Shown piece after piece: positions 5,637-63,473 of a stretch of DNA of 64,000 nucleotides. Under the pieces are notes generated by a model that saw only the letters and a list, made by a program, of their open reading frames with translations, did not search any database and had not been told where the DNA came from. Position numbers and translations under genes: made by a program. The DNA is from a virus, in the IMG/VR virus record IMGVR_UViG_3300031370_000002, positions 62,789 through 126,788 of that record; one strand, given 5' to 3'. Every line of letters starts with the position of its first letter. The first letter of the stretch is position 1.

Positions 5637-6095
5637 ATGATCTTTCTTAGCGTTAACGCTGAGACAGGAGAAATTTATGGGCGTGTGCGAGAAGCTACGC
5701 CTACTTCTGTTGAAGTTGATTCCGAGTTGTTTGGTCGCTATATCAGTGCTCCGGATGCTTTTCTTTATTATCCGGATCGCAGCACGATTGATCTGCGTCC
5801 TGATTATTCTGCGCCGAAAATTCTTTCGATTCCACCTGAGATTATTGAAACATATCAAGGGCGTTTACAGGAAGAAGTTTTCATTCCTGAATTGGAAGTC
5901 AGCGTTTGTATTGCAGGCGCATTAGGCCGTGCTTTTCTGACTGCCGTTGCATTGGCACCATATCAACCGCAAACTGTTTTGGTTTATAACGCAGGCGACT
6001 ACACGACGATTGAAATAACCAAAGACAATCTGAAATATTTCGCAGGCGCTTACGCCAAACATTTTGCTACGATTATGGGGAATGCTGATGAGTAA
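5637..6095 (+). CDS. Putative tail fibre assembly/chaperone-like protein
   Basis: 152 aa directly after the collagen fibre gene. The function is inferred from position only. Confidence 0.4.
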   Translation: MIFLSVNAETGEIYGRVREATPTSVEVDSELFGRYISAPDAFLYYPDRSTIDLRPDYSAPKILSIPPEIIETYQGRLQEEVFIPELEVSVCIAGALGRAFLTAVALAPYQPQTVLVYNAGDYTTIEITKDNLKYFAGAYAKHFATIMGNADE

Positions 6096-6873
6096 ATTAA
6101 GCAGCTATGTAGACACGCTTGTTGAACTGGCCAGGCAGCAAGGCTTGAGTAGTAGCAACGATATTGTATACAGAATTGCGCCGGAAGTTGTTGTGATTCT
6201 TTCAGACAACGAACCGACAGATCACACATTCCCTCTCGACGGCGTTTGGATTGTGACTGACATTGATGCGCAGAATTATAAATCCGTTTATAAGCGCGTC
6301 AGTAAAACTCCTGCAAACGATCTTCAAAACACTTGGAAACTTCTTTCTGAGTATGATGAGTTTGCGAGTGTTCAAAAATGGGATCAAGCAGATTTACCTG
6401 AGCCTGTTATTTTGAGTGCAAAGGGCGGTCAGCTTGAAGCCGCACTGTTACCGCGACAAACAAAAGCGTACGCAGCAAACGAAACTATTCCTCGAAGTTA
6501 TGCCGATGAAGTTAAATCAGCATTGTCGAAAGGTTTCGGCGTTATGCTGAATAACATGAATGCGCGAGTAACAAGTAATACCGGGCGCGTAAATACTCTG
6601 ACGCAAACTGTTCAGCTTTTAAATTCTAAAGTTGATGACGTGGCAACAGGTTCTTTACGCAGCATGTTTGTAATTCAGGAAACACCAACTCCGCTTTGGG
6701 CTTTTGCTCACGAATTTGGAGAAGGAAAAGGATTTGTTTTCTGTACGGATGAAAGCGGAGAAATTGTATGGCCGGAAAAAGTCTATACAGATCCATCTTC
6801 GCCAAACGTTGTGTTAGCGGAATTCTTGGACTCTGTTTCTGGATTTGGTCTGTTAGTGTTTGCGCCGAAGTAA
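6088..6873 (+). CDS. Hypothetical structural protein
   Basis: ATG at 6088 overlaps the upstream stop. Central predicted coiled coil (NARVTSNTGRVNTLTQTVQLLNSKVDDV). Confidence 0.6.
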   Translation: MSKLSSYVDTLVELARQQGLSSSNDIVYRIAPEVVVILSDNEPTDHTFPLDGVWIVTDIDAQNYKSVYKRVSKTPANDLQNTWKLLSEYDEFASVQKWDQADLPEPVILSAKGGQLEAALLPRQTKAYAANETIPRSYADEVKSALSKGFGVMLNNMNARVTSNTGRVNTLTQTVQLLNSKVDDVATGSLRSMFVIQETPTPLWAFAHEFGEGKGFVFCTDESGEIVWPEKVYTDPSSPNVVLAEFLDSVSGFGLLVFAPK

Positions 6874-7631
6874 ATACTTTGGTTATGGTGCAAAGCTACG
6901 CAGGTGCGTACTACGGCACTACGGTTGTGGCAGGGATGCTACAACAGCCCACGGCAGTTATTTATGTTCCGATAACTCGCAATTTGTCTCGTCCTGAGTT
7001 TGACGATTACATGGAACGTGTGACAAGCAAGATTGAGTTTTATCAACCAAAGCGATTAATCAGTATCGACAAAGATTTTCTTAAATACTTGCCGATAACC
7101 CTTCAAGAGAAATACAAAAATTCCTATCTTTTTCTGCAAACTTACCAGCCTATGTGCGACAAGATAAACTATCTTGTGGAATCTTCTGACAGAAAAAATG
7201 TTCCTCTGTATATTCTTGTGGGTACTCGTTCTATTTCCCGCGACAGTGACGAAGTTATAGATACCTGTGTAAAAACAGAAAAAGAGGTTTTCTATATTCA
7301 CACTTTATCGGAACTAAAACGAACCATTACGCTGCTTCAAAGCAAAGACAAAGGCTTTATCGTTAATGCTTTGAACTACGTTGTGGACACTGAGTTTAAT
7401 ACAGTTGTGGATCGCGGTCAGGTGAATCATTACATCAATATGATTAACCGTACGCACACCACGATAGGCAAGTTCTCTTACATCAATCTGGATATTTCTT
7501 TGCGCCCTATCATGAAGGACGACAAGATGAGTGTGGAATTATTTGTGCGTCCAAATAATCTACAATCAGAAGACGAAGAAATTTTGATGAAAAACATCAT
7601 ATCCTCAATTGACGGAACACTTTCTCGCTAA
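6768..7631 (+). CDS. Secreted periplasmic-binding-protein-like (ABC_sub_bind-type) sensor domain protein
   Basis: RBS GGAG 7 nt before the ATG. Signal-peptide-like N-terminus ending ...SVSVCA-EVNT. Motifs LVMVQSY...Y, KIEFYQPKRLISIDKDFLKYL and TLSELKRTITLLQ resemble type I PBP sensor domains. Confidence 0.6.
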   Translation: MAGKSLYRSIFAKRCVSGILGLCFWIWSVSVCAEVNTLVMVQSYAGAYYGTTVVAGMLQQPTAVIYVPITRNLSRPEFDDYMERVTSKIEFYQPKRLISIDKDFLKYLPITLQEKYKNSYLFLQTYQPMCDKINYLVESSDRKNVPLYILVGTRSISRDSDEVIDTCVKTEKEVFYIHTLSELKRTITLLQSKDKGFIVNALNYVVDTEFNTVVDRGQVNHYINMINRTHTTIGKFSYINLDISLRPIMKDDKMSVELFVRPNNLQSEDEEILMKNIISSIDGTLSR

Positions 7632-7665
7632 TTTAAACACAAGAAAGTTTCGAAGGAGAGTAGCA

Positions 7666-7941
7666 ATGACCGGTTCTAAAATGGCGAAGCTACTCATCGT
7701 TTTGTTTGTAGGATTTGTCTTGTTACTCGCTTTCTCAACAAGCAAAAAATCTTATGCGCCGAGCAACGTAGTTGGCGACGAAATTGTGAGTTGCGTTTCT
7801 GCCGTATGTGTTTCTGATAACACTTTAGGCAACTGCATTGAGTTCCCGCCTAGAGTAGCGCGAGTGATTCAAACCACGGATGTAAATTCTGGCGCAGTTC
7901 GTTTTGTAGTTAGTTTGAACAATACTTGCAAAGGAAAATAA
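7666..7941 (+). CDS. Small membrane-anchored protein with Cys-containing periplasmic domain
   Basis: RBS AAGGAG before the ATG at 7666. N-terminal TM segment LLIVLFVGFVLLLAF. Four Cys in the C-terminal domain. Confidence 0.65.
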   Translation: MTGSKMAKLLIVLFVGFVLLLAFSTSKKSYAPSNVVGDEIVSCVSAVCVSDNTLGNCIEFPPRVARVIQTTDVNSGAVRFVVSLNNTCKGK

Positions 7942-7942
7942 G

Positions 7943-8431
7943 ATGGGCGCATTGTTCGAGTTTCTTGGTCAGATCATGGGATCTAATACGCCGACCATCT
8001 TTGCTTGCGCTGGGCTTGTTGTAGCCAGCGCATTTTATTATTTCAAGGTGATTCCAGCAATGGAACAGCTTAAAGAATATAAAAGAAAAGAGGCCGAGGG
8101 AACTTTCACATCGTCTGATGTAACTGACGGTCTGGAAGAAGTTAAAGCACTGGTAAATAAAATAATCGAAGAAAGTCCGGACTCTGGCGCTGCGAAGATG
8201 TTGAGCGATGTTCTAAGGGCAACCCACGAACTAGAACGATCTCTGAATGCGCTTGGACGCGATACTCAGTTTACAACTGGTGTCGTTCGCGATTTAATGT
8301 CAGCCGTGAACGACTTGCATACGGAAATTGCAGCGGTGCGGCAGAAGTTACATACACTTTCTGCTGCGGTTTATTCTTCAACAGGAGCGCACGACGATGA
8401 CCGTCTAGGCGATCTCAGGAGTTTGCGATGA
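7943..8431 (+). CDS. Single-TM protein with long coiled-coil domain (holin-like or transducer-like)
   Basis: TM segment IFACAGLVVASAFYYF followed by heptad-rich helices. Starts 1 nt after the upstream stop. Confidence 0.6.
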   Translation: MGALFEFLGQIMGSNTPTIFACAGLVVASAFYYFKVIPAMEQLKEYKRKEAEGTFTSSDVTDGLEEVKALVNKIIEESPDSGAAKMLSDVLRATHELERSLNALGRDTQFTTGVVRDLMSAVNDLHTEIAAVRQKLHTLSAAVYSSTGAHDDDRLGDLRSLR

Positions 8432-9177
8432 AAGGCTTTTTGAAAAACAACATTGAGTTCCGGAGGTATACTGCGGAACGATATGCAGATTTTTATAAAG
8501 CTAAAGCGTTCATGCTTTCGGAAATTCTTGAAACTAATCGGCACCAGTTTACGGCGCAGGCGCGAGAGACTTTACTTCAATACTTCGCGTCTGCAACCGA
8601 TTGGCTACAGGAAGTTGAGCGTCTCTTTATCCGTAGTGGAACGGGAGCGGCACCAACAGATGAAAACGGAAAGCTGATCATTGAAACTTTCATCGGAATG
8701 GAAACTTTTGTGCATGAACTGATGCTCGAAAATCCGGATGATTTTGATGCAGGTTTCACGAATGCTTGGATAGAAATGAGAACACAAAGTTTGGCGGGAA
8801 TCGTAAACGCTTTTAGTTTACGCCTAAGTCCAAACAAGGAAGAAGCGTTTCGTCTCATCACAGATTTCACAATTGGGTACATGGGCCATACCATGTTTAA
8901 TCTGCATGAAATGGATTACCTGATTGTAAAACGTGAACGTCCGTTTGTTTATGTGGATAAACTTGATCTCACGGTTATGGAGATCGATCAAGCCACTAAC
9001 CCTGTTACTCGTTGGACAGTATACAGCAAGCACGGACTGCTGGAATATTGCCCTAACGTTAAAATGCGAGCTAAATATATGCTCGACGACAAATACGTGT
9101 GCTCTTACGATTTACGAAAAAGCGCGTATGAAAAGTTACGTTGTTCGTTAGACCAATGTGATTCTAATTTCTTTTAG
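8428..9177 (+). CDS. Cytoplasmic hypothetical protein, mostly helical N-terminal part
   Basis: 249 aa. ATGA overlap with the upstream gene. No TM or signal peptide seen. Confidence 0.65.
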   Translation: MKGFLKNNIEFRRYTAERYADFYKAKAFMLSEILETNRHQFTAQARETLLQYFASATDWLQEVERLFIRSGTGAAPTDENGKLIIETFIGMETFVHELMLENPDDFDAGFTNAWIEMRTQSLAGIVNAFSLRLSPNKEEAFRLITDFTIGYMGHTMFNLHEMDYLIVKRERPFVYVDKLDLTVMEIDQATNPVTRWTVYSKHGLLEYCPNVKMRAKYMLDDKYVCSYDLRKSAYEKLRCSLDQCDSNFF

Positions 9178-9250: not shown

Positions 9251-11431
9251 ATGAAAGTTGGCAATATTAAGTTAATGACTGGTGCAGTAATCGCAAACCT
9301 TCGTGGTGAGCAGCTTGCATCCGATCCTTCACTGGCCTCACTTGTTGCCGCACAAGAAGCCGTCATGTGGTATAACACCACAGACAAAGTTTATAAATAC
9401 TTCAATGGTTCATCAATCATTGCTCTGAACGGCGGCGGTGAAGCTCCAGATCTTTCTGGTCTGGTAAAAGCTGATGGCTCTGTTGCGATGACTGCTGCGC
9501 TGGAACTGAGTTCTGATGATCAGTCTGCTGCGGATTCTAAAGCAGCGGTAAGTAAAGGTCACGTTGATACTCAGCTTGCGAAAAAACTGACTGTTGCTTC
9601 TGGCGCACTGACTGCGGATCTTTCTGCTGGCGGTTTTGGTATTTCAAATCTGGCAGCGCCTGTTAACGGTACTGATGCAGCGCGTAAGATCGATATTGAA
9701 AACGCACTGGCGGGTATGAACTGGCAAGAAGATGTTGATGGCGTTCAGACTGATGCAACAATGCAGCCGGAAAAAGTTTCTGGTAAGCGTTATGTTCTGA
9801 CTGACGTTGCAAATCTTCACGCAGATTTTGGAACCATCGCATCTGTTGCGAACAACGCAATCGTGCAGTACAAAGACAGCGCTTTCGTAGTTGTTTTTGA
9901 TCCTGCTGCGGATCGTGCTGATGGAGCGATTGCTTGGAACCACGCAACCAAACAGTACGTTCGTTACAACGGCACTTCATGGTCTGTTTTTGGTGGTATG
10001 GCAAGCGTAACAAACGGCGCAGGTCTGAATCTGAATGGCAACGAACTTTCAGTTAAAGTTGATGCTGCTGGCGGCGTTTCTGTTGGCGCTGATGGCGTTA
10101 GTCTGAAACTGAATGGCGCAAGTCTGGCACTGTCTGCTGATGGCGTTAAAGTTGCTGATGGCGGCGTTGGTTTTGCTCAGCTTGCTTCTGCTGCATTTGG
10201 CACGGGCCTGAAACGCAACACAACTTCAAGCGCAATCGAACTTGATACTACTGCTGTCAAAGCGGCTGGTTTTATCGACGCAGACGGCGGTGAAGTTGCA
10301 AGCCTTATTCTTACTGGCGATGTTCAGGAAGTTGACGGCGCTGTTGCAACTCGTAAGTTTGTTCTGGATAACGCAAGCGGTAACGGTTCGCAGGCGTACG
10401 TTCTGGATATGACAGGCAACGATGTTACTGCGGAAACCAGCTACACGTTTGCACACAACGCAGGTATTCGTTTTGGTACAGTTACAGTTTACGACGCAGA
10501 CGGCAAACAGATCATGCCTAGCGAAGTTACTCTGACTGACGAAAACAATCTGACTATCGATCTGCCGGAAGCGATGAAAGTTGTTATCGTGTTTGTTACT
10601 GGTGCAAACAAATATGTTGCTCCTGAAACTGGCGGTAATGGCGGCGGCACTACTCCTGTTCAGCCGGACTATGAACTGTTCTATGGTCTGAACCAGCAAG
10701 ATTCAACCGCAAGCATTACGTTCCTGCTTGTTGCTAAAGATCCTTCAACTGTTAAATCTGTTGATTGGTCAGGTGCAGATGTTAGTGCTCAGTTTGGTAA
10801 CTGGAAGAATCCAACTATCAAAAGTTTTGTTATCACTGCATACAAAACTTCTGGAACTCCTACTCTGCCTGCTGCTGGTACTGTTACTGCAACAATTACC
10901 AAACAGGATAGTTCAACCGAAGTTGTAACGCTGAACTACAACCTGCCGGATCTGACTCCGATGTTAACTGCGGGCCGTCGCGACGATACCTCTTATTCTG
11001 CATCAATGAAAGTTGTGCAGACTTGGGTTAAGCCGGGCGAAACTCACGGTGTGTCTCTGTGTGATCCATCGGGTAACGTTCTGCATACTACTGCCGGTCT
11101 TGCTGCAAACAAATTCGCTGCGGATGAAACAATTTCCAAAGTTGAATGGAACGTTGTGCATAACACGCAAAACCGTGACAAGGTTGATACTTCCAAAGTT
11201 ACAATCGCGCCTTCTTTCGACGGCTTACGTGCAAACGTAATTCTCGATTCAAGTGTTGCTGTTGTTTCGCTGGGCGGTAACAACTACACGTTCGCAGTAA
11301 GCGCAAAAGTTACAATGAGTTCAGGCCGTGTATTCGTTGCCTATATTGGGATGGGTATTCTGGATTCTACTTCTGCGGTCAACACGAAGAAAGCTCCGTT
11401 TACTCAGGCGCAGCTTGATAGTGCTTGGTAA
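9251..11431 (+). CDS. Long fibre-like virion structural protein
   Basis: 726 aa, rich in Ala/Gly/Val/Thr. Has shaft-like repeats (GAGLNLNGNELSVKVDAAGGVSVGADGVSLK) and the APVNGTDAARK motif. Strong RBS and followed by a terminator. Confidence 0.7.
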   Translation: MKVGNIKLMTGAVIANLRGEQLASDPSLASLVAAQEAVMWYNTTDKVYKYFNGSSIIALNGGGEAPDLSGLVKADGSVAMTAALELSSDDQSAADSKAAVSKGHVDTQLAKKLTVASGALTADLSAGGFGISNLAAPVNGTDAARKIDIENALAGMNWQEDVDGVQTDATMQPEKVSGKRYVLTDVANLHADFGTIASVANNAIVQYKDSAFVVVFDPAADRADGAIAWNHATKQYVRYNGTSWSVFGGMASVTNGAGLNLNGNELSVKVDAAGGVSVGADGVSLKLNGASLALSADGVKVADGGVGFAQLASAAFGTGLKRNTTSSAIELDTTAVKAAGFIDADGGEVASLILTGDVQEVDGAVATRKFVLDNASGNGSQAYVLDMTGNDVTAETSYTFAHNAGIRFGTVTVYDADGKQIMPSEVTLTDENNLTIDLPEAMKVVIVFVTGANKYVAPETGGNGGGTTPVQPDYELFYGLNQQDSTASITFLLVAKDPSTVKSVDWSGADVSAQFGNWKNPTIKSFVITAYKTSGTPTLPAAGTVTATITKQDSSTEVVTLNYNLPDLTPMLTAGRRDDTSYSASMKVVQTWVKPGETHGVSLCDPSGNVLHTTAGLAANKFAADETISKVEWNVVHNTQNRDKVDTSKVTIAPSFDGLRANVILDSSVAVVSLGGNNYTFAVSAKVTMSSGRVFVAYIGMGILDSTSAVNTKKAPFTQAQLDSAW

Positions 11432-11442
11432 GTAATTTAAAT

Positions 11443-11468
11443 GGGAGGGCTTCGGCCTTCCCTTTTTT
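11443..11468 (+). terminator. Rho-independent terminator
   Basis: GGGAGGGC-TTCG-GCCTTCCC followed by TTTTTT. Confidence 0.9.
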
Positions 11469-21609: not shown

Positions 21610-21957
21610 ATGTTACCTGATGTGCAAGAAGTGATTAAACACTATGATTGGTTTCAGTTGTTCGGCTTTCTTTGCACTTGGGTAGGCGGCGTTCTTGTCA
21701 ATTACGTTCAAAAGACAAAGCGTGAAGGTTTGAATTGGCGTCAATACTGGACAAACAACCCGTTCTCTACGATTGCGAGTGTGTTTGTCAGTGTTGGCCT
21801 TTTCGTTAACTTGATCGGCTCTGGCGAAAGTAATCACATTACGTTCTTCTCTGTTGCATTTATGGCTGAAAACCTTATCAACAACGGATCGAACCGTAAC
21901 AACGCGAACGACTCAAATGCAAAACCTGACGACCAGCGAGTAGACCAAAATGGATAA
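21610..21957 (+). CDS. Putative holin-like membrane protein
   Basis: 115 aa with 2-3 hydrophobic segments and a hydrophilic charged C-tail. Sits upstream of the spanin-like genes. Confidence 0.5.
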   Translation: MLPDVQEVIKHYDWFQLFGFLCTWVGGVLVNYVQKTKREGLNWRQYWTNNPFSTIASVFVSVGLFVNLIGSGESNHITFFSVAFMAENLINNGSNRNNANDSNAKPDDQRVDQNG

Positions 21958-22231
21958 GCTCAAAAAGTATTGGCTGTGGTTTGTTGGTTTTATTGGCGTA
22001 TGTGTAGGAATCTTTTTAGTACGTCCAAACGCACGGAAAACTTCTAACGGTATCTCTGAACTCCAGAAAGCCGAAAACAAAATTCGCGAGAAAGCCGTAG
22101 AGCAGCAACGGAAAGATGCTCAAGCGGTAACGGAAGATGTTAGTAAGTTGAATGAGGAACGAAAGCCGGATGCAGTGGCAAACGAAAACGATGACATGGA
22201 TAAGTTGAGCGAGGAATATAAAAAGCTATGA
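21950..22231 (+). CDS. Putative i-spanin-like protein
   Basis: N-terminal TM segment (YWLWFVGFIGVCVGIFLV) followed by a charged coiled coil. Overlaps both neighbours. Confidence 0.55.
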   Translation: MDKLKKYWLWFVGFIGVCVGIFLVRPNARKTSNGISELQKAENKIREKAVEQQRKDAQAVTEDVSKLNEERKPDAVANENDDMDKLSEEYKKL

Positions 22232-22692
22232 AGATATTAATTCTTCTGTGCGCTTTTGTGCTGTGTGGTTGTAGCGGTTTGGGAGCAATTCCGGATCAGC
22301 AGAAAACAACCATGCAGCAGATTCCGCGAGTTGAACGTCTTACGTGGGATAAGGTTGAGGTTCCTGCTAAGCCAGAAGTAACAGTGAAAGTTTTCGAAGG
22401 TAAAAAGTTAGCTACGCTGGATAACAAAGGCATGGCAGACTTAATCAAACTTTATTCAGCAGCAAAGAATCGTACTGATGAAACAAATCAGTTGATCGTT
22501 GTTCTGAATAAAACTATCGACGAAAGAAATAAACTGTTGGAATTGGCGCAGGCAGAAGAATTAAGATCGAATGGTCTTGCGAAGGATTTAACAGCGGAAC
22601 GTGAAGCGCGGATTCGTGAACAAAAAGCAGCAGACTTACAACTAACTATCACTCGCTTGATTGCGATTGTGGCGGTTGGATTTGCGTTATAA
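22228..22692 (+). CDS. Spanin-like lipoprotein with hydrophobic C-terminus
   Basis: Signal MKILILLCAFVLCG-C with Ser at +2, then a coiled coil, ending in LIAIVAVGFAL. Confidence 0.6.
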   Translation: MKILILLCAFVLCGCSGLGAIPDQQKTTMQQIPRVERLTWDKVEVPAKPEVTVKVFEGKKLATLDNKGMADLIKLYSAAKNRTDETNQLIVVLNKTIDERNKLLELAQAEELRSNGLAKDLTAEREARIREQKAADLQLTITRLIAIVAVGFAL

Positions 22693-62555: not shown

Positions 62556-63473
62556 TTAAATGTCGCCCATTTCGACCGGGCCTTTCATGCGCTTGCGTGG
62601 TTTGATTTTGGCTTTCAACTTCGATTTAGATTTCACTTTAGCTTTCGGTTTACGATCTGCATCTTCGTTCAGATACACATCTTCGCCTAACTCTAACGCG
62701 CCGTCTTCGTCATCAGCAAATGCGCCAAGCAAACTACCGCTGTCAATCATTCCCATCAGATCCACAAGCGTATTTGTCTTCTTGCCTTTCTTACCTTTCT
62801 TGCCTTTAACCACGTCGTCCATATTTGGTACAGAGAAGCCATCAAGAATAGTTGGAACTTTAAACTTAACGTCTTCGTCCGGCAGATATTTTTTAACTGT
62901 TTTGATTTCCTGCTCAGGATCAATCAGTTTATCTTCTGCCTTCATTTTCTTCATCAGCGGTTTGAACTCTGATTTAGAATAAACTGAGGGGCCAGCTAAT
63001 CCTGTGTTTGGATACGTCAGCACAATGTTGCCTTCTTCACTGATCAGACGAATCTCTTTGTCGTCAATGTCGAGCACACGCGCCGCCATAAAGTTGTTCA
63101 TGTAGTTGCGAGACTCACGCCCACGGTAACGAACAAATACAGGTTGCCCCATCTTCACGCCATGCTTACGAGTGTTTGCTTCACGTAAAAGCATCATCGA
63201 AATAATGCGCAGATCTTTTTCTTCCATCGAACCGAACAACTGGAACAAAGCAACTAATCCGTCGCCGCCTTCTTGCATAAGGTTTTGCAGATCGTACGTG
63301 TTAGTGCGGAAGTGCTTGCACATCGTACTGTCTTCCATTTTACCCAAACTTTCGCAAGGCTTTGTTGCGGCAGGAATCAGAACATCACGATTCAATCCAC
63401 GGCAGTCACCACAAGTTACGGTTGTTTTTACCAGTTCTTTGAGATCTGCGGTGCGAAGTGTTTTCTTGCTCAT
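62556..63473 (-). CDS. Hypothetical protein with Cys cluster and Lys-rich tail
   Basis: CGDC...C...C N-terminus and an SH3-like middle (GQPVFVRY). Confidence 0.65.
   Translation of the reverse strand: MSKKTLRTADLKELVKTTVTCGDCRGLNRDVLIPAATKPCESLGKMEDSTMCKHFRTNTYDLQNLMQEGGDGLVALFQLFGSMEEKDLRIISMMLLREANTRKHGVKMGQPVFVRYRGRESRNYMNNFMAARVLDIDDKEIRLISEEGNIVLTYPNTGLAGPSVYSKSEFKPLMKKMKAEDKLIDPEQEIKTVKKYLPDEDVKFKVPTILDGFSVPNMDDVVKGKKGKKGKKTNTLVDLMGMIDSGSLLGAFADDEDGALELGEDVYLNEDADRKPKAKVKSKSKLKAKIKPRKRMKGPVEMGDI

Follow-up and report, generated by a model that had tools for sequence, protein, structure and literature searches.

Few ways are known in which lytic phages sense their surroundings; examples are lysis inhibition in T4, arbitrium peptides, and borrowed quorum-sensing receptors. 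In the LuxP-LuxQ, TorT-TorS, and ChvE-VirA systems, a free periplasmic type-I periplasmic binding protein (PBP) reports its ligand occupancy to a separate membrane protein, and cyanophages encode PstS, an exported phosphate-binding protein of type-II fold that is close to the host protein and works with host PstCAB. In phage T4, RI is a periplasmic signal-peptide antiholin and RIII a cytoplasmic antiholin, both of which act on the holin T (PMC8385771, PMC11413866). The jumbo phage phiKZ encodes a single-helix class IIIB holin with a large cytoplasmic domain, gp142, and an adjacent cytoplasmic lysis regulator, gp143 (PMC12894885). Here we describe four consecutive genes (g1 to g4) in 64,000 nucleotides of viral DNA (IMG/VR record IMGVR_UViG_3300031370_000002, positions 62,789 to 126,788; this whole stretch is called the window below). 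They are a co-inherited module of a jumbo-myophage lineage, and their products very probably lie partly outside and partly inside the inner membrane of the host.

The window is about 75% identical at the DNA level to the Dickeya solani jumbo myophages JA11, JA13, JA29, and JA33 (genus Salmondvirus), and its record is a 191-kb viral contig with an estimated completeness of 75%. A sequence-only reading of the window had described four tightly packed genes at 6768 to 9177 with a 1-nucleotide (nt) gap and an ATGA overlap, and we found the coordinates and spacing as claimed: g1 and g2 are 34 nt apart, g2 and g3 are separated by 1 nt, and g3 and g4 overlap by ATGA. Shine-Dalgarno sites lie 6 to 7 nt upstream of all four starts (GGAG for g1, AAGGAG for g2, AAGGAA for g3, and AGGAG for g4). 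The module sits in the tail gene block, where the plus-strand late genes encode, in order, a large ILEI-like protein, a collagen-repeat tail fiber, another "tail fiber" protein, the product of the upstream gene, the g1 to g4 proteins, and a virion structural protein. The first strong terminator, at 11443, closes the plus-strand run holding the module and is the strongest intrinsic terminator-like hairpin between positions 1 and 13000; between 4600 and 11431, only weaker ones (5 to 6 pairs, of which 3 to 4 are GC) were found on either strand. We infer that g1 to g4 are expressed together late in infection, as backed by the lack of a strong terminator until that hairpin.

Synteny across related jumbo phages showed that the four genes have been kept together in widely diverged relatives, and the set is therefore real and not a chance arrangement. 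The order from the upstream gene through g1 to g4 to the downstream gene was kept in all 17 viral-contig loci first examined, at 25 to 85% identity. The same order was seen in Erwinia phage loci (L030 and L041) and in the metagenomic phage loci L045 to L048, in which g4 is only 26 to 32% identical. A profile search recovered all four genes in order in Pseudomonas phage PaBG (gp253 to gp256), Lu11, and phage NCTB, and two further metagenomic contigs (L051 and L053) also carry them in order. Relatives with the module include the Dickeya JA phages and the Erwinia phages Y3, Yoloswag, and SNUABM, and the ATGA overlap of g3 and g4 was present in 14 of the 14 close relatives tabulated. The module thus belongs to jumbo myophages that infect plant and soil bacteria, in a lineage comprising Salmondvirus, Sasquatchvirus, Baikalvirus, Lu11, and their relatives. 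Between Dickeya and Erwinia phages, its members diverge at different rates, with 25 to 30% identity for g1 and about 50% for g4, compared with 41 to 47% for the upstream gene.

Three cases mark the edges of this distribution. Salmonella phage Sen-NF has the four genes in order, but g1 is broken into two open reading frames (ORFs) (L022, 3638-4328), one of 55 amino acids (aa) with the signal peptide and one of 193 aa; the split could have arisen by frameshift or deletion or be an artifact of assembly, and the 108-kb record is much shorter than those of its relatives. In L055, the most distant contig with a g1 homologue, g1 directly follows the tail-tube gene, and the next three genes match g2 to g4 in size and topology with no detectable homology to them; this contig was left out of the co-conservation count. 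In Vibrio phage Va1 and Ralstonia phage RsoM2USA, g4 is the only one of the four that is detectable. It adjoins a protein of g3-like architecture (in reversed order in RsoM2USA), and neither g1 nor g2 was found at that locus. Because this pairing also occurs in phages without g1 and g2, the g3-like and g4 pair is very probably the older core, to which g1 and g2 would have been added later in the Y3/JA/PaBG/Lu11 lineage.

Table 1. Positions of the module, its neighbors, and two remote features (window coordinates unless a locus is named; aa, amino acids; ORF, open reading frame).
Feature	Position	Strand	Details
Gene 1 (g1)	6768..7631	+	287 aa; ORF; PHROG 31505
Gene 2 (g2)	7666..7941	+	91 aa; ORF
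Gene 3 (g3)	7943..8431	+	162 aa; ORF; PHROG 31730 "membrane protein"
Gene 4 (g4)	8428..9177	+	249 aa; ORF; PHROG 19088
Upstream neighbor	6064..6873	+	PHROG 24148; 3' end contains the g1 start
Downstream neighbor, virion structural protein	9251..11431	+	PHROG 16122
Terminator-like hairpin	11443..11462	+	8-bp stem, 6 GC pairs, T-run
Separate holin-like/spanin-like/lipoprotein cassette	21610-22692	+	13 kb downstream of the module
SLT-domain protein	G000:C1:153675-153965; locus L049 1453-2022	minus	hydrophobic N-terminal segment MICMGLILTLVIPFTV

The g1 product is very probably a stand-alone protein of type-I PBP fold, like the ligand-sensing domains of bacterial kinases and cyclases. Its AlphaFold2 (AF2) model, built from the family alignment, shows an alternating strand-helix pattern (predicted local distance difference test [pLDDT], 85.9; predicted template modeling score [pTM], 0.79). 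When the model was compared with the PDB using Foldseek, the best 50 matches all had the type-I PBP fold or were homologous receptors or repressors, save two malic-enzyme chains; they include binders of sugars, ribose, nucleosides, urea, and branched-chain amino acids, LacI-family cores, and amino-terminal domains of N-methyl-D-aspartate (NMDA) receptors. VIA-align placed at the top the tryptophan-binding protein of Streptococcus pneumoniae (3lft; Z, 12.8), a Vibrio cholerae protein (3lkv; Z, 12.6), and Clostridioides difficile CD0873 (6hni; Z, 12.3), with about 220 residues aligned (223 at the highest Z), a root mean square deviation of about 4.1 to 4.2 Å, and 7 to 12% identity, and 371 chains reached a Z of at least 8. 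Among AFDB clusters, the best matches (probability 1.0) were largely N-terminal sensor domains of histidine kinases, diguanylate cyclases, PAS sensors, and RpfC.

The top three VIA-align structures are all of the ABC_sub_bind type, the type to which the sequence-only reading had assigned g1. The assignment is right at the level of the fold, because these structures and the AFDB sensor domains agree; it does not extend to membership in the Pfam family ABC_sub_bind (PF04392), and the likeness is structural only. Both g1 and the ABC_sub_bind/Bmp-type PBPs have an N-terminal export signal, and the same two-lobed alpha/beta fold covers the whole of mature g1. Unlike these proteins and the sensor domains, g1 is shorter, comes with no permease, is never fused to a signaling domain, and is encoded in a jumbo-phage tail block. 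Pfam returned no family for g1 of the window at an E value of ≤1 and, for 46 aligned family members, none at ≤0.01 beyond one stray match; a PDB profile search with g1 found nothing, and a word-based homologue search found close relatives only. Thus, g1 adds a new and strongly diverged branch to a fold that is already known.

Among 1.84 billion representative proteins, a profile search delineated a g1 family of about 48 members (107 to 346 residues), with no fusion to another domain among them. As the family is small and never fused, g1 is not a borrowed host transporter part. The permease family PF02653 of ATP-binding cassette (ABC) transporters was absent from the five genomes searched (the record of the window and the genomes of four relatives), though g1 might work with a host transporter. 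The only ABC_tran-like P-loop ORF is a weak match (about 36 to 37 bits) roughly 22 kb from the module in JA11; this 283-aa ORF (JA11 G001:C1:31901-32302 and G004:C1:95815-96207) occurs in Dickeya-type relatives but was absent from the record of the window, which is incomplete. Across the g1 family, the polar residues conserved best are D207, N227, H230, Y148, E209, and N240, which are predicted to lie at strand ends and in loops, as ligand-binding residues do in this fold, and are candidates for the binding site.

The export of g1 depends on where translation begins. The ATG at 6768 lies 106 nt inside the upstream gene, in another frame, and is preceded by its GGAG site at 7 nt; the next in-frame ATG, at 6885, has no Shine-Dalgarno site, and its use would drop the hydrophobic N terminus. 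From the first start, a signal peptide is predicted at about residues 1 to 33, with cleavage at SVCA|EV. The basic stretch, hydrophobic stretch, and small-x-small motif of such a signal were kept in 15 of 15 aligned relatives, which also retain the start codon and an open frame across the overlap. In Yoloswag, g1 has no alternative start codon in its first 90 codons, and in PaBG, NCTB, and the metagenomic contig L048 its signal peptide is textbook-like without any overlap. A hydrophobic N-terminal signal was also seen in 24 of the 29 full-length members of the wider family. Taking this conservation as a guide, we consider that g1 is very probably exported by Sec, in agreement with the signal peptide and PBP character that the sequence-only reading had ascribed to it. 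The RefSeq entry for the JA11 homologue (locus L001; 249 aa) begins at the downstream methionine that corresponds to the ATG at 6885, so that the signal peptide is lost from the annotation.

The overlap itself (6768..6873) is kept in most relatives. Among four close genomes, its variability was 0.36, versus 0.44 to 0.45 in the flanking coding sequence, for an overlap of only 106 nt. Within it, the second codon position of the g1 frame, which is the position that sets hydrophobicity, is under additional constraint, and the substitution pattern by codon position indicates purifying selection on g1. Several relatives carry a lipobox-like LGAC within the g1 signal peptide. We rejected g1 of the window as a lipoprotein, in that the residue before the cysteine is leucine here (GLC) and phenylalanine in L002 (GFC).

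For the other three products, the sequence-only reading had proposed a 91-aa transmembrane protein with a cysteine-rich periplasmic domain (g2), a single-transmembrane protein (g3), and a soluble helical protein (g4), and these descriptions held up. The g2 protein has one N-terminal hydrophobic helix (residues 6 to 24), and C43, C48, C57, and C88 are invariant in 16 sequences. The charges flanking the helix suggest an N-in/C-out orientation, in line with periplasmic cysteines. It is predicted to expose a domain of about 60 aa to the periplasm and to be either bitopic (N-in, C-out) or a signal-peptide protein; the g2 versions of NCTB and L055 (in the latter, the gene matching in size and topology only) have long N-terminal cytoplasmic extensions, which favors a signal anchor. 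The g2 protein is very probably anchored in the inner membrane, with a small, probably disulfide-bonded domain in the periplasm. No informative match to g2 was found in Pfam, PHROGs, or NCBIfam, a feature search of the ESM Atlas was blank, and there is no cysteine in or just after the hydrophobic segment that could form a spanin-type lipobox. The gene is unannotated in Lu11 (L021, 4268-4492), in L051 (about 5900-6190), and in the RefSeq record of Y3 (63889-64077), although all four cysteines are present in each.

The g3 protein has one N-terminal hydrophobic segment (about residues 17 to 36) and a conserved DLRxLR at its end; its heptad periodicity is weak and gives little backing to the long coiled coil that the sequence-only reading had proposed. 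By the positive-inside rule, which is a rule of thumb, the flanking charges of g3 and its relatives favor N-out/C-in, and its helical C-terminal domain is probably cytoplasmic. If so, the orientation would be opposite to that of the i-spanin of a two-component spanin (N-in, C-out, with a periplasmic coiled coil); a lipoprotein with a true lipobox lies elsewhere (22228-22692), not in the module. Beyond the "membrane protein" label, no informative match to g3 was found in Pfam, PHROGs, or NCBIfam. Weak matches to DUF948, TraP, and FtsL were far below cutoffs and were ignored. Identity with the releasin of phage Mu (DUF2730, PF10805) was also rejected: a language-model feature score reached 0.85, but hhalign against Mu gp25 gave a probability of 3.8%.

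The g4 protein is the most conserved member of the module, with 47 to 54% identity to Erwinia phage homologues and further homologues in Lu11, PaBG, NCTB, Va1, and RsoM2USA. It has no hydrophobic segment, and its AF2 model (pLDDT, 93.5; pTM, 0.90) combines five long helices with a small alpha/beta part at the C terminus, very probably the orphan fold of a soluble cytoplasmic helical protein. In the PDB, Foldseek gave no match (E > 0.4), the best Z in a wide VIA-align search was 7.1, which is within helical-bundle noise, and a profile search gave nothing useful. The ESM Atlas yielded template modeling (TM) scores of ≤0.36 by shape and nothing by feature search. One uncharacterized AFDB cluster matched with a TM score of 0.73, and no fusion was found among longer proteins. 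The "ABC transporter" label of PHROG 19088 and RefSeq is unfounded, as g4 has no Pfam or NCBIfam match, a soluble model, and no transporter-like structure.

With g1 and g2 very probably outside and g3 and g4 inside, as judged from sequence features and models, the module resembles a device that crosses the inner membrane of the host, not a part of the virus particle. The export signals and the annotation of relatives likewise suggest that g1 to g4 are absent from the virion. The sequence-only reading had interpreted the genes as a relay from a periplasmic ligand through the membrane to the cytoplasm that might tune lysis timing or the response to superinfection, and had known of no phage system so composed. 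The anatomical side of this interpretation is supported, the relay being hypothetical; two conditions named there as refuting, a g1 lacking a PBP fold or secretion and four genes not conserved together, did not hold, and our literature searches agree on the composition. They turned up no paper linking jumbo phages with periplasmic binding proteins or describing this module, and the four-gene composition matches no described system. We tentatively favor, with considerable doubt, a regulator that would respond to a ligand and act from the periplasm to the cytoplasm on a late membrane event, for example, on the timing of lysis. In this scheme, g1 would bind a small periplasmic molecule and act through g2 to alter the state of the g3-g4 pair at the membrane, and the pair would regulate the late event, most plausibly holin triggering or lysis timing. 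Lysis timing is favored because the only well-understood phage devices with exported, single-helix membrane, and cytoplasmic parts are lysis regulators (T4 RI, T, and RIII) and because phiKZ pairs a single-helix holin with an adjacent cytoplasmic regulator. A complex prediction for mature g1 with the g2 ectodomain gave a score of 0.15 (mark, 0.32), which weighs neither for nor against binding.

Comparison with the described systems shows how far the likeness goes. Gene t of T4 also adjoins tail-fiber genes. The module resembles the T/RI/RIII set in combining a single-helix membrane protein with an exported and a cytoplasmic partner, all from late genes. The T4 set differs in having three proteins instead of four, with no sequence or fold relation found; RI has 75 residues, whereas the exported protein of the module is a PBP fold of about 250 residues, and the large domain is predicted to be cytoplasmic in g3 but is periplasmic in its T4 counterpart. 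No Pfam or PHROG lysis-category family was matched by g1 to g4. The phiKZ pair gp142/gp143 is likewise from a jumbo phage, with a single-helix membrane protein followed by the gene for a soluble cytoplasmic partner. The likeness of g3/g4 to it is one of architecture. It has limits, in that the cytoplasmic domain of gp142 is N-terminal (N-in/C-out), whereas g3 is predicted to be N-out/C-in, and the phiKZ pair sits with an endolysin and spanins, whereas g3/g4 does not.

The bacterial receivers of the LuxQ/TorS/VirA type are histidine kinases with known output, whereas g2 to g4 have no recognizable signaling domain. A split, kinase-less transmembrane sensor, in which a phage-specific exported binding protein would read a periplasmic small molecule and set the timing of a late step, is a view that we consider unlikely, if worth stating; it would be a kind of phage device not described before and would allow a lytic jumbo phage to sense conditions outside the cytoplasm. 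The ligand might be, for example, a wall fragment freed by superinfecting phages or a host metabolite, and the signal would be relayed by two membrane proteins, each with a single helix, to a cytoplasmic partner of new fold, tuning, for example, lysis.

Several observations weigh against a role of the module in lysis timing. None of g1 to g4 has homology to known lysis, exclusion, or signaling proteins in Pfam, NCBIfam, PADLOC, or PHROGs, and g4 has no recognizable output domain in comparisons with the PDB (Foldseek and VIA-align), AFDB, and the ESM Atlas. Besides, the cassette downstream of the module (Table 1) offers separate membrane proteins of lysis-like appearance. One of its products (115 aa) has two hydrophobic helices, another (93 aa; PHROG 35764) combines an N-terminal helix with a charged tail, and the third, encoded at 22228-22692, is a 154-aa lipoprotein with the lipobox LCGC and a C-terminal hydrophobic helix (PHROG 23384, "lipoprotein"); the cassette lies at the end of the plus-strand late block, and no endolysin adjoins it. 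A lysin candidate of 189 aa with an SLT domain (PF01464, 45.9 bits) is encoded far from both membrane-protein clusters, beside a dUTPase-like gene, and from its N-terminal segment may be a signal- or signal-arrest-release (SAR)-type endolysin. With a separate cassette and a remote SLT lysin, there is no physical linkage between the module and lysis genes. Moreover, the g3-like/g4 pair of Va1 and RsoM2USA has no periplasmic partner, so sensing is not its basic function; the topology and helical nature of g3 are derived from simple rules only, and the constant tail-gene neighborhood is left unexplained by lysis timing. The notion that the module itself is the core lysis cassette is weakened by the same cassette and the SLT lysin elsewhere.

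The neighborhood of tail genes bears on two other explanations. Exclusion proteins such as T4 Imm and Sp, T5 Llp, and phi80 Cor typically act at periplasmic or inner-membrane sites, and g1 and g2 might, like T5 Llp or T4 Imm and Sp, mask or alter a periplasmic or surface structure without any signaling, blocking superinfection by related phages or sparing progeny from receptors on debris, with g3 and g4 acting on the inner-membrane side, for example, against DNA entry. We regard such envelope modification as rather unlikely. It would accord with the predicted sites of the products, with the constant position in the tail block (receptor-masking genes often adjoin receptor-binding tail genes), with the faster divergence of g1 than of its neighbors, and with the lipobox-like motif in the signal peptides of several relatives. 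That motif is, however, not retained in g1 of the window or of L002, whereas an AxA-type cleavage site is, and the conserved residues, which resemble those for a small ligand across phages of at least five host genera, are unlike what a host-specific receptor mask would show. T4 exclusion genes are early, whereas g1 to g4 are in a late structural block, and no PADLOC or PHROG exclusion family matched them. The invariable tail-block placement, flanked by fiber genes and a virion structural gene in both the window and PaBG and after the tail-tube gene in L055, would also suit a role in morphogenesis or in the virion. In that case, g3 and g4 would form a membrane-bound assembly platform or chaperone for the tail, fibers, or "hairs," and g1 and g2 would be periplasm-matured accessories joining particles at lysis; JA11, AD1, Y3, and Lu11 are indeed "hairy" myoviruses with unexplained appendages (PMC6143709). 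We consider this quite improbable, since tailed-phage particles assemble in the cytoplasm, whereas a cleaved Sec signal and periplasmic disulfides would put g1 and g2 elsewhere, and the PBP fold is not a known virion fold. Furthermore, the Y3 and PaBG records mark the downstream gene as virion or structural but none of g1 to g4, and the g3-like/g4 pair of Va1 is not beside recognizable tail genes. In the PaBG paper, only 14 virion proteins, the abundant ones, are listed, and g1 to g4 are not mentioned.

The solved structures nearest to g1 are true transporter binding proteins for tryptophan, tyrosine, riboflavin, and nucleosides, which raises the alternative that g1 is an auxiliary metabolic gene whose product brings an amino acid, a nucleoside, or a similar nutrient to an ABC importer of the host, with g2 to g4 as functionally unrelated neighbors. 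Phage-encoded PstS is a precedent and, like g1, an exported substrate-binding-type protein, and the fast divergence of g1 between host genera could reflect docking to different host permeases. This explanation seems very unlikely to us. Unlike PstS, g1 shows no similarity in sequence to any binding-protein family of cells that our searches could detect, and it is strictly co-inherited with three fixed partners, g2 to g4. Its family is small and lies beside phage tail genes wherever the context was examined, mature g1 is about 40 to 60 residues shorter than the matched binding proteins, and the gene is in the late structural block, not among early metabolic genes. The probability left over after the regulatory, envelope, morphogenesis, and metabolic readings goes to something not thought of.

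If the regulatory role that we favor is true, a binding protein of sensor type that is exported and has fixed partners in the membrane and the cytoplasm, conserved through a whole lineage of jumbo phages of plant-associated bacteria, would be a new sensing route for lytic phages, and it would offer a concrete way into the question of how these slow-lysing giants time the end of an infection. Whatever the function, the analysis corrects the annotation of the start and signal peptide of JA11 g1, the "ABC transporter" label of g4, and the missing g2 in the Y3 RefSeq record, Lu11, and one metagenomic contig. It also documents a conserved 106-nt dual-coding overlap and defines two protein families (g1 and g4) suited to structural and ligand work.

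The upstream gene, which contains the g1 start, carries the database labels "HNH endonuclease" and "long tail fiber"; neither is backed by Pfam, and the first, which has no NCBIfam backing either, looks wrong. At the C terminus of its product (6810-6873), the last 20 residues or so are hydrophobic, with a maximal Kyte-Doolittle value of 1.82 at residues 249 to 267, which may simply be due to the DNA that it shares, in another frame, with the signal peptide of g1.

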